This document shows, in pieces, positions 3,280 to 5,942 of a DNA stretch of 32,904 nt. Position 1 is the stretch's first letter, and every line of letters begins with the position of its first letter. This DNA comes from a virus (taxonomy: Duplodnaviria > Heunggongvirae > Uroviricota > Caudoviricetes): IMG/VR virus record IMGVR_UViG_2778261269_000003, positions 1 to 32,904 of that record; one strand, 5' to 3'. Position numbers and translations under genes: made by a program. The notes under the pieces are model-generated. The model was given only the letters and a program-made list of their open reading frames with translations, was not told the origin of the DNA and did not search any database.

Positions 3280-3484
3280 TTACCTGAAATGGTATCTCTG
3301 CCACCGCTGGTTAATTAAGTTTGCTGTAAAAGACTGGATGACAGCGGATGCCAACAAGCTTAAGCAAAGAAAAGACTATTACTACGCCAGAATGAAGGAA
3401 AACTACTGCTCAATTCGCACTCGCATATTTATTAAAAAAGACCTTCAGTCAATTCTTCAATTGCGAGGGAAGGTAAATGGCTAA
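3272..3484 (+). CDS. Small hypothetical protein
   Basis: 70 aa ORF overlapping ninF stop and the downstream start; AT-rich; no recognisable motif. Confidence 0.3.
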   Translation: MSDYLKWYLCHRWLIKFAVKDWMTADANKLKQRKDYYYARMKENYCSIRTRIFIKKDLQSILQLRGKVNG

Positions 3485-3767
3485 CCTACGCAAAGAAGCG
3501 CGCGGCAGAGAATGCCAGGTACGTATTTACGGCGTATGCAATGGCAACCCTGAAACTACAGTTCTGGCACATTACCGGATGGCTGGAATTTGCGGAACGG
3601 GAATGAAGCCTGACGACCTGCTCGGCGCATGGGCTTGTAGCGCGTGTCACGATGAAATCGACCGACGCACCCATAATCTCGACAACAAAGACGCCAGACT
3701 TTACCACCTCGAAGGCGTGATCAGGACGCAGGCGATACTGCTGAAGGAGGGGAAGATTAAGCCATGA
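3477..3767 (+). CDS. YbcO-like phage protein (DUF1364, putative nuclease)
   Basis: Translation MANLRKEARGRECQVRIYGVCNGNPETTVLAH...ACSACHDEIDRR recalled as E. coli DLP12 YbcO; GAAGG RBS before ATG 3477. Confidence 0.68.
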   Translation: MANLRKEARGRECQVRIYGVCNGNPETTVLAHYRMAGICGTGMKPDDLLGAWACSACHDEIDRRTHNLDNKDARLYHLEGVIRTQAILLKEGKIKP

Positions 3768-4311: not shown

Positions 4312-4931
4312 GACTCGAAAGCGTAGCTAAATTTCATTCGCCAAAAAGCCCGATGATGAGCGACTCACCACGGGCTACGGCTTCTGACTCTCTTTCCGGT
4401 ACTGATGTGATGGCTGCTATGGGGATGGCGCAATCACAAGCCGGATTCGGAATGGCTGCATTCTGCGGTAAGCATGAACTCAGCCAGAACGACAAACAAA
4501 AGGCTATCAACTATCTGATGCAATTTGCACACAAGGTATCGGGGAAATACCGTGGTGTGGCAAAGCTCGAAGGAAATACTAAGGCAAAGGTACTGCAAGT
4601 GCTCGCAACATTCGCTTATGCGGATTATTGCCGTAGTGCCGCGACGCCGGGCGCAAGATGCAGAGATTGCCACGGCACTGGCCGGGCGGTTGATATAGCC
4701 AAAACAGAGCAGTGGGGGAGAGTTGTTGAGAAAGAGTGCGGAAGATGCAAAGGCGTTGGCTATTCAAGGATGCCAGCAAGCGCCGCATATCGCGCTGTAA
4801 CGATGCTAATCCCAAACCTTACTCAATCCACTTGGTCACGCACGGTTAAGCCGCTGTATGACGCTCTGGTGGTGCAATGCCACAAAGAAGAGTCAATCGC
4901 AGACAACATTTTGAATGCGGTCACACGTTAG
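4308..4931 (+). CDS. Q: Late gene antiterminator Q
   Basis: 207 aa translation MRLESVAKFHSPKSPMMSDSPRATASDSLSG... recalled as near-identical to lambda Q. Confidence 0.93.
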   Translation: MRLESVAKFHSPKSPMMSDSPRATASDSLSGTDVMAAMGMAQSQAGFGMAAFCGKHELSQNDKQKAINYLMQFAHKVSGKYRGVAKLEGNTKAKVLQVLATFAYADYCRSAATPGARCRDCHGTGRAVDIAKTEQWGRVVEKECGRCKGVGYSRMPASAAYRAVTMLIPNLTQSTWSRTVKPLYDALVVQCHKEESIADNILNAVTR

Positions 4932-4973
4932 CAGCATGATTGCCACGGATGGCAACATATTAACGGCATGATA

Positions 4974-5016
4974 TTGACTTTTTGAATAAACTTGGGTAAA
5001 TTTGACCCAACGATGG
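4974..5016 (+). promoter_or_regulatory. Late promoter PR' with qut (Q utilisation) site
   Basis: TTGACT (4974-4979), 17-nt spacer, TAAATT (4997-5002) directly after Q; sequence recalled as the lambda PR'/qut region. Confidence 0.6.
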
Positions 5017-5201
5017 GTTAATTCGCTCGTTGTGGTAGTGAGATGAAAAGAGGCGGCGCTTACTACCGATTCCGCCTAGTTGGTCACTTCGACGTATCGT
5101 CTGGAACTCCAACCATCGCAGGCTGAGAGGTCTGCAAAATGCAATCCCGAAACAGTTCGCAGGTAATAGTTAGAGCCTGCATAACGGTTTCGGGATTTTT
5201 T
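5010..5201 (+). ncRNA. Short PR' leader transcript (lambda 6S RNA equivalent) ending at tR'
   Basis: Inferred from PR' position and the downstream terminator; about 190 nt, as in lambda. Start point estimated, not measured. Confidence 0.45.
5144..5201 (+). terminator. tR' Rho-independent terminator (target of Q antitermination)
   Basis: ATCCCGAAAC (5144-5153) pairs with GTTTCGGGAT (5187-5196), inner GCAGG/CCTGC helix, then TTTTTT. Confidence 0.7.
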
Positions 5202-5597
5202 ATATCTGTGCAACAGGTAAGAGCATTTGTAGAGTTCGACTCTCTACCGTGGGCTTTTTCCCGCGATGCGAGCCATAAATGCTCTTTCCGTTGTGCTGAA
5301 TTAAGCGAATACCGGAAGCAGAACCGGATCATCAAATGCGTACAGGCGTCATCGCCGCCCAGCAACAGCACAACCCAAACTGAGCCGTAGCCACTGGCTA
5401 TCCTGAATTCATCAGTGATAGTTACGCTGCGGCCTTCTACGCATGACCTTCGTGAAAGCGGGTGGCAAGAGGCTGCGCTAACAACCTCCTGCCGTTTTGC
5501 CCGTGCATATCGGTCACGAACAAATCTGATTACTAAACACAGTAGCCTGGATTTGTTCTATCAGTAATCGACCTTATTCCTAATTAAATAGAGCAAA

Positions 5598-5627
5598 TCC
5601 CCTTATTGGGGGTAAGACATGAAGATG
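5598..5627 (+). promoter_or_regulatory. Holin dual-start region with sdi stem-loop
   Basis: TCCCC-TTATT-GGGGG hairpin immediately upstream of ATG-AAG-ATG (Met1 5619, Met3 5625), as in lambda S. Confidence 0.5.
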
Positions 5628-5942
5628 CCAGAAAAACATGACCTGTTAGCCGCCATTCTCGCGGCAAAGGAACAAGGCATCGGGGCAATCCTTGCGTTTG
5701 CAATGGCGTACCTTCGCGGCAGATATAATGGCGGTGCGTTTACAAAAACAGTAATCGACGCAACGATGTGCGCCATTATCGCCTGGTTCATTCGTGACCT
5801 TCTCGACTTCGCCGGACTAAGTAGCAATCTCGCTTATATAACGAGCGTGTTCATCGGCTACATCGGTACTGACTCGATTGGTTCGCTTATCAAACGCTTC
5901 GCAGCCAAAAAAGCCGGAGTTGAAGATGGTGGAAACCAATAA
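5619..5942 (+). CDS. S: Holin / antiholin S (S107 from Met1, S105 from Met3)
   Basis: 107 aa translation [34 protein letters not shown]... recalled as lambda S. Confidence 0.93.

Follow-up and report, generated by a model that had tools for sequence, protein, structure and literature searches.

The window, meaning the whole 32,904-nt stretch of phage DNA that was analysed (1-32904), is a mosaic, in which the first ~6.5 kb (replication, nin, Q and S) are about 95% identical to the E. coli phages E212 and HK140, and the part from about 6465 onward, which holds mostly structural genes, is only about 85% identical to the Enterobacter phages ENT1, BHUENT3/6 and CobraSix. The region described here leads from the Q antiterminator gene through the late promoter PR', a 6S-type leader RNA, the terminator tR' and a further leader to the dual start of the holin/antiholin gene S (Table 1). 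In a megablast search, window 4900-5700 (801 nt) was aligned over the whole query with lambda J02459/NC_001416 44478-45267 at 94.3% identity, and 178 phage records were matched by the same query; the lambda late region (J02459 about 43886-45509) has the same order and spacing and nearly the same sequence as the window. An earlier reading of the window from its letters (the sequence-only reading) had placed an intact PR', a qut region with 6S leader, a tR' about 190 nt downstream and an intact sdi hairpin and S dual start here, and all of these were recovered, with promoter and terminator elements undisrupted in the alignment with lambda.

PR' is the sole promoter-like match in a promoter scan of 4800-5800 and lies directly downstream of Q, and the signature of PR' and qut is complete, with TTGACT-17-TAAATT beside Q, a spacer element predicted to bind Q, the -10-like pause element AACGAT, and a Q of lambda type. 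The PR' spacer with its Q-binding element (TtTTGAATAAAcTTGGG) has two mismatches to lambda, and in a five-way alignment of the late region (window, lambda, Dewey, Kapi1 and IME10) both positions vary in Dewey, Kapi1 and IME10 as well. In alignment with lambda, the discriminator carries one change, the AACGAT pause element is identical and the 6S leader differs by one substitution (A>T at 5124). The role of AACGAT at +1 to +6 is presumed from established lambda knowledge, and +1 is assumed to be 5009/5010 by alignment to the lambda start; on that assumption, the T run of tR' ends at about +192 to +194, and a G+C-rich hairpin followed by a U run lies about 194 nt from the start, the arrangement of tR' and 6S RNA. 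No base of the tR' stem (5143-5195) or of its T6 run (5196-5201) differs from lambda, and the hairpin is visible in a fold of 5010-5300; owing to its branched loop, it escapes a simple terminator scan. The alignment with lambda is likewise free of differences from about 5480 up to and including the S start, a stretch that takes in the sdi hairpin and the Met-Lys-Met start ATGAAGATG (5619-5627), which together form the signature of a dual-start holin. Q and S are identical to their lambda counterparts at 205/207 and 106/107 residues, respectively. As judged by its sequence, the late control region is an ordinary, textbook switch of the lambda type and as such already known; since intact and near-identical elements stand beside a 99%-identical Q, Q-dependent late expression and lambda-style holin/antiholin timing of lysis by S107/S105 would be the behaviour expected from established lambda biology.

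Table 1. Features of the late control region of the window, with the basis of each assignment.
Feature	Positions	Strand	Basis
Q antiterminator gene, 207 aa	4308-4931	+	ORF list
PR' late promoter: -35 TTGACT (4974-4979), 17-nt spacer, -10 TAAATT (4997-5002)	4974-5002	+	promoter scan and lambda alignment
Pause-inducing element AACGAT, -10-like, at transcript start, part of qut	5009-5014	+	equal to lambda in alignment
6S-type leader RNA, about 194 nt	5010-5203	+	ends assigned from lambda coordinates
tR' intrinsic terminator: branched hairpin (5143-5195) and T6 (5196-5201)	5143-5201	+	alignment, fold
Long hairpin module, 19 pairs and bulged A5215, 48-nt apical domain	5209-5295	+	covariance model, covariation
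Module strands: 5' strand; 3' strand	5209-5228; 5277-5295	+	helix covariation
Predicted RNase III cuts	5224^5225; 5282^5283	+	RNase III rules and Qin homologue
Stretch differing from lambda, 52 nt (41 nt in lambda)	5228-5279	+	alignments
T-arm-like hairpin, 6-bp stem GTAGAG/CTCTAC, invariant 7-nt loop TTCGACT	5229-5247	+	2 pairs with compensatory changes, 21 variants
Second hairpin CGTGGG-CTTTTT-CCCGCG, acceptor-like, loop-capped	5248-5265	+	100% of cells paired, 2 pairs double-changed
Conserved single strand ATGCGAGCCAT, 11 nt	5266-5276	+	alignment A3
Remaining late leader, lambda-like	5296-5596	+	alignment
sdi hairpin AUCCCC-UUAUU-GGGGGU over Shine-Dalgarno region of S	5597-5613	+	centroid fold; equal to lambda
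S holin/antiholin gene, 107 aa; S107 start 5619, S105 start 5625 (ATG AAG ATG)	5619-5942	+	ORF list

The sequence-only reading had also remarked that part of the leader downstream of tR' seemed to differ from lambda, which the alignments bear out and narrow down to 5228-5279, the only real difference between the window and lambda in this region, bounded on both sides by lambda-identical sequence. The stretch makes up the tip of a long hairpin that is itself conserved, and is a structured, conserved RNA domain rather than random divergence. The hairpin begins 8 nt past the T run of tR' (fold z = -4.5), and alignment and folding of lambda give the same outer helix with another interior, only the apical cassette on the helix being exchanged: the apical 41 nt of lambda are replaced by 52 nt in the window. 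A covariance model of the window element (its tip model was built from close relatives, with an effective number of 1.09) scores 113 bits at 5211-5297 in the window and 37 bits on lambda, where only the base helix is matched. A second intrinsic terminator after tR' was considered and ruled out, as the 3' flank of the hairpin (GUGCUGAAUUAAG) has no U run, and a terminator scan finds no + strand terminator at this hairpin. An 83-aa ORF (5139-5390, +) spans tR' and the whole module and is the counterpart of lambda orf-64 (44621-44815), lengthened by the swapped segment; because it overlaps conserved RNA structure, it is probably no gene.

As modelled, the tip of the window type is a conserved three-way junction with a mimic of the tRNA T-arm, in which the T-arm hairpin (5229-5247) is a perfect look-alike of its tRNA counterpart and its 3' strand is directly abutted by the second hairpin (5248-5265). 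Alignment A3, comprising 21 of the 24 distinct 88-nt variants of the window type that were gathered, has 98.1% of cells paired in the three helices and double changes at 7 pairs, values that were reached by 0/500 shuffles, with slid controls at no more than 60%; RNAalifold independently predicts the same three helices from the window-type alignment. All window-type tips in A3 share GATGCGAG (5265-5272) unchanged; its first G is also the closing base of the second hairpin. Several A3 positions are G.U on this strand, and the RNA is therefore the late-sense strand. The window-type tip was found in 59/5426 complete E. coli genomes, at 46 chromosomal places and at 18 on plasmids of about 90-110 kb, which are P1-like where examined. 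Among 50,697 phage records it occurs in only three, all of Enterobacter phage and at 80-83% identity, and pattern scans of IMG/VR gave 48 and 69 loci. In the GTDB representative genomes, Kluyvera has the sole true match, and 17/18 of the scan matches were rejected as chance matches in unrelated MAGs and genomes. That the tip is conserved in three genera speaks against its being mere filler.

No tRNA, with its cloverleaf and anticodon arm, is called by ARAGORN anywhere in the window, and in 4950-5640 neither RF00005 nor any relevant Rfam family gives a match at E<=10; in the whole window, Rfam gives no match at gathering score, the models for AgvB/AsxR, STnc100, YrlA and DicF included. The patch could nonetheless be the decaying remnant of a tRNA gene, left behind by recombination and without function of its own, since genes for tRNA-Asn, Thr, Arg and Tyr lie in or beside the same slot in Kapi1, mEp506 and P1-like plasmids, since a textbook T-arm is followed by an acceptor-like strand, and since neither ARAGORN nor Rfam calls a tRNA in it. 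We consider such decay improbable, because both tip hairpins keep their pairing by compensatory changes among the E. coli, Enterobacter and Kluyvera copies, the 8-nt single-stranded stretch is invariant, no co-resident tRNA matches the patch above shuffled controls, and the T-arm adjoins the 5' strand of the enclosing helix, whereas in tRNA it adjoins the 3' strand. An origin as a fragment of a neighbouring phage tRNA was rejected (best local alignments 19-25, against a shuffled mean of 18.8 and maximum of 29), as was the M3 RNA of phi80, a phage-induced RNase P substrate that is described as having no T-loop equivalent.

The base helix of the module is found far beyond the window type. In one scan, the same helix flanks enclose at least 32 unrelated interiors, and a wider scan gave at least 86 distinct helix sequences with about 49 unrelated tip types. 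In a scan by 3' flank, the helix sequence varies with complementarity kept, as in the pairs AGGTAAGAGCATTG/CAGTGCTCTTTCC, GTTGAGAACACTGG/CCAGTGTTCTCAAC, GATAAGGGCATTTG/AAGTGTCCTTTTC and AGCAATATCACTGG/CAGTGATATTTCT. A helix-only alignment (A4) of 42 distinct helices has double changes at 12/19 pairs and 95.1% of cells paired, a percentage that is inflated by the selection of members at >=17/19 complementary positions, which leaves the diversity of pair types unaffected; slid controls stay at or below 63%, and the observed values were reached by 0/500 shuffles. Across the 86 helices, both strands read AGNGCNYU in dyad symmetry, and one position holds a U.G wobble in 52/86, the keeping of which again identifies the RNA as the late-sense strand. 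A boxA reading of the 3' strand UGCUCUUU, prompted by its resemblance to the rrn boxA, was dropped, as family members change these bases together with compensating partners.

Unrelated interiors within identical flanks are also the pattern expected from recombination in those flanks, and the inverted repeat might then act as DNA, as a conserved boundary or recombination site for swapping the enclosed cassette. This is highly improbable, as the helix changes with compensating partners, which homologous recombination does not require, and as many pairs are G.U, on one strand only, and the element always lies in the sense orientation of the leader transcript.

In late leaders, in P1 and in CI-adjacent operons, modules come after a terminator or stand among tRNAs. 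Those in late leaders are located after tR' or after tRNA arrays, and in operons beside CI-like S24 repressors, the terminator ahead of the module has an end like that of the dicF terminator. The leader of the P1 ban operon holds four modules interleaved with tRNA-Asn and tRNA-Thr and positioned under ORFs of the opposite strand, plp and upl, and E. coli K-12 has a module in Qin (L319:3175-3256), 127 nt upstream of dicF. By the helix criteria used, no module was found in the late regions of the K-12 prophages DLP12 and Qin, and the same helix scan found none in the lambda N leader, whose RNase III hairpin was thereby rejected as a family member. T-arm-like hairpins occur in 7/49 independent tip types, against 0.02 expected from shuffles, and in one tip (L156) a complete cloverleaf-like domain, not called a tRNA by ARAGORN, stacks on the helix. 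The hairpin family is absent from Rfam 15, where the nearest signal is a sub-threshold STnc100 match just 3' of modules.

Several observations concern the surroundings of these modules. The P1 genes plp ('putative lipoprotein') and upl (1973-2542 in L318, from NC_005856.1; 69472-70041 in the record) lie opposite the strand of the ban leader and cover modules 2 (2005-2089) and 3 (2231-2322), and upl also reaches into the beginning of module 4 (2507-2583); both may be spurious ORFs over structured RNA. Compared with lambda and the window, IME10 has an extra insertion of ~137 nt directly after the module (L003, locus about 690-830), and in Kapi1 tRNA-Asn and tRNA-Thr take the place of the module and about 100 nt beyond; insertions and replacements thus have a hot spot in the few hundred bases that follow tR'. 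In the P1-like plasmid NZ_CP021537 (L005, about 1340-1400), a tRNA-Ser is followed by only the 5' half of a module (GCAACGTTAAGAGTATTTGG), fused straight to the lambda-like leader that follows the window module, in what looks like a deletion scar.

The pairing pattern of the helix points to RNase III. According to the rules of Altuvia et al. (2018), the two pairs between the staggered cuts are paired, usually as G-C/C-G, and pairing is strongest four pairs out on either side (D/D'), where it is A-U/U-A; the register of the 'D' pair is our own reading of their text. Across the 86 helices, the central positions hold G-C (65/86) and C-G (71/86), one or both of them in 83/86, and the fourth pair from the centre is A-U in 85/86 on one side and U-A in 80/86 on the other. 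The window has an intramolecular helix of about two turns (19 pairs and one bulge), the central pairs G5223-C5282 and C5224-G5281 between the predicted cuts, and, in the same self-assigned register, A-U/U-A at D/D' (Altuvia et al., 2018). The dyad-symmetric AGNGCNYU pattern suits a homodimeric enzyme.

The Qin module provides a homologue for which processing is on record. RNase III generates the 5' terminus of the ~190-nt DicF species, as primer extension and an rnc mutant showed (Faubladier et al., 1990; bioRxiv 10.1101/2023.04.14.536235). With the predicted Qin cut, the RNA would begin at L319:3245 and measure 191 nt up to the annotated 3' end of dicF, against the ~190 nt reported there for the DicF species; this position follows from arithmetic on the gel size of about 190 nt, as distinct from a published coordinate. 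The helix at the dicF site, AUAAC-GCGAAAGCGCAUGG / CCGUGCGCUUCCG-GUUGU, is homologous to that of the window, CAAC-AGGUAAGAGCAUUU / AAAUGCUCUUUCC-GUUG, with the same conserved A-U, G-C/C-G and U-A positions, and both lie in an untranslated stretch of a phage operon. The two differ in that the dicF site belongs to the early-left (dicB) operon and the window module to the late leader, in that the Qin tip is 43 nt and, unlike the window tip, has no T-arm, and in that cleavage is experimentally supported at the dicF site and predicted in the window. By homology with Qin, lambda would be cut at 44802^44803 and 44849^44850 and the window at the corresponding 5224^5225 and 5282^5283, and we infer cleavage in this phage and in lambda on these grounds; the literature searched holds no report of an RNase III site in the lambda late leader. 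Overall, the conserved hairpin looks like an unrecognised RNase III processing site common to lambda, P1 and the E. coli dicF locus.

The dicF locus holds a second helix of interest. A long-range helix in L319 (K-12 NC_000913.3), 3441-3459 with 3578-3596, is complementary at 18/19 positions and has the 118 nt that separate dicF from dicB inside it; homologous flanks in P1 and L273 show STnc100 matches below threshold. According to a review, the 72-nt form of DicF arises by a further RNase III cut, and the 3' end so made lies at about 3454, inside the 5' strand of the 3441-3459/3578-3596 helix. Given this cut inside a second helix, RNase III helices that bracket non-coding cargo seem to be a habit of these leaders.

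The long hairpin might also remain uncut and serve either to back up tR' against read-through in lysogens, by termination or pausing, or to shield the adjacent RNA from exonucleases or 5'-end-dependent RNase E. Its position always a few bases past an intrinsic terminator or a tRNA would fit such a role, and tandem terminators after PR' in lambda were reportedly described by Luk and Szybalski in 1983. We nevertheless think it quite unlikely, as the 3' flank of the helix has no U run, the sequence-specific, dyad-symmetric conservation of AGNGCNYU is needless for a hairpin that is merely stable, and the Qin homologue coincides with an end that depends on RNase III.

The account that we lean towards, and hold to be somewhat probable, is that of a working lambda late switch followed by a post-tR' RNase III double-cleavage helix with an exchangeable tip. 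PR' would act constitutively and give rise to a ~194-nt 6S-type RNA that ends at tR'; Q would load at the Q-binding/pause site and allow read-through of tR' into S-R-Rz and the structural genes, with translation of S from its two starts controlled by the sdi hairpin. The read-through transcript would fold 8 bases past the tR' T run into the ~19-bp helix (5209-5228 with 5277-5295), and RNase III would cut both of its strands at the predicted positions, detach the 6S/tR' leader from the late mRNA and release the apical domain as a ~58-nt RNA; in relatives, the same cleavage would also detach tRNAs that are inserted after tR'. The RNase III model accounts for the conserved helix, but not for the conservation of the T-arm tip itself. 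A much broader proposal, which we regard as doubtful, is a cassette system shared by lambdoid phages, P1-like phage-plasmids and prophage remnants, in which the RNase III helix is a universal excision signal and the exchangeable cargo, of at least 49 types and with several tRNA mimics, acts as phage small RNAs. The 58-nt T-arm domain of the window would then be one cargo and lambda would carry another, and excised cargos could, for example, be decoys for tRNA-directed host nucleases or for tRNA-binding enzymes.

The classical phage RNase III hairpins, such as the site in the lambda N leader and T7 R1.1, are helices of about 20 bp whose cutting separates or activates RNA segments. The module has no sequence relationship to either of them, and the exchangeable apical cassette is its own. 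The topology of the window tip recalls the tRNA-like domain of YrlA, being that of a tRNA whose acceptor end is closed and whose anticodon side is open; in contrast to YrlA (RF02553), the window element has no Rfam match at E<=10, no D-arm and no Rsr/Ro context, and is far smaller. The STnc100/PasD prophage sRNAs (RF02076; bioRxiv 10.64898/2026.05.13.724894) occupy the same neighbourhood, from Q or early operons to the lysis genes, and sub-threshold matches of 32-33 bits lie directly 3' of the modules in P1 and in L273; these cover the flank of the module and not the module, and there is none in window 4950-5640 at E<=10. In lambdoid prophages, AgvB and AsxR (RF02702/RF02703) likewise lie downstream of PR' (Tree et al., 2014, PMC4104026). 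The module has CACAAC at its foot, similar to the GcvB target motif CACAACA, with the difference that these bases are paired in the module. The AgvB and AsxR RNAs of EHEC prophages are, unlike the module, primary transcripts of 51-60 nt in which the 5' end varies and the terminator is conserved, and a reading as an anti-sRNA of this kind, which CACAAC at the helix foot had prompted, was ruled out by this architecture and by the absence of an Rfam match.

In the literature searched, there appears to be no description of the family, of its occurrence in lambda and P1 or of its exchangeable tips; one member, the site upstream of dicF, has been a known RNase III site since 1990 (Faubladier et al., 1990) but was not connected to a family. 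Lambda, the best-studied phage, hence seems to carry an unannotated, conserved RNA processing hairpin right after tR'. If true, this would account for the excision of tRNAs and small RNAs from within long phage leaders, would give a sequence rule for finding such processing sites, and would flag P1 plp/upl and ORFs of the lambda orf-64 type as probably spurious.

Two further observations were made in related phages. An IMG/VR phage contig that also carries hairpin modules has, within an array of six tRNAs, one with the anticodon CTA (L152, 9535-9610), which ARAGORN labels Pyl and which is thus amber-reading. In the Enterobacter phage CobraSix (L008), an Rfam match to isrJ (62.6 bits, 1855-1928) lies directly after a putative Q gene; as this is where a short PR'-proximal transcript would lie, another Q/PR' type may have sRNAs of the IsrJ type as its 6S-like leader RNA.
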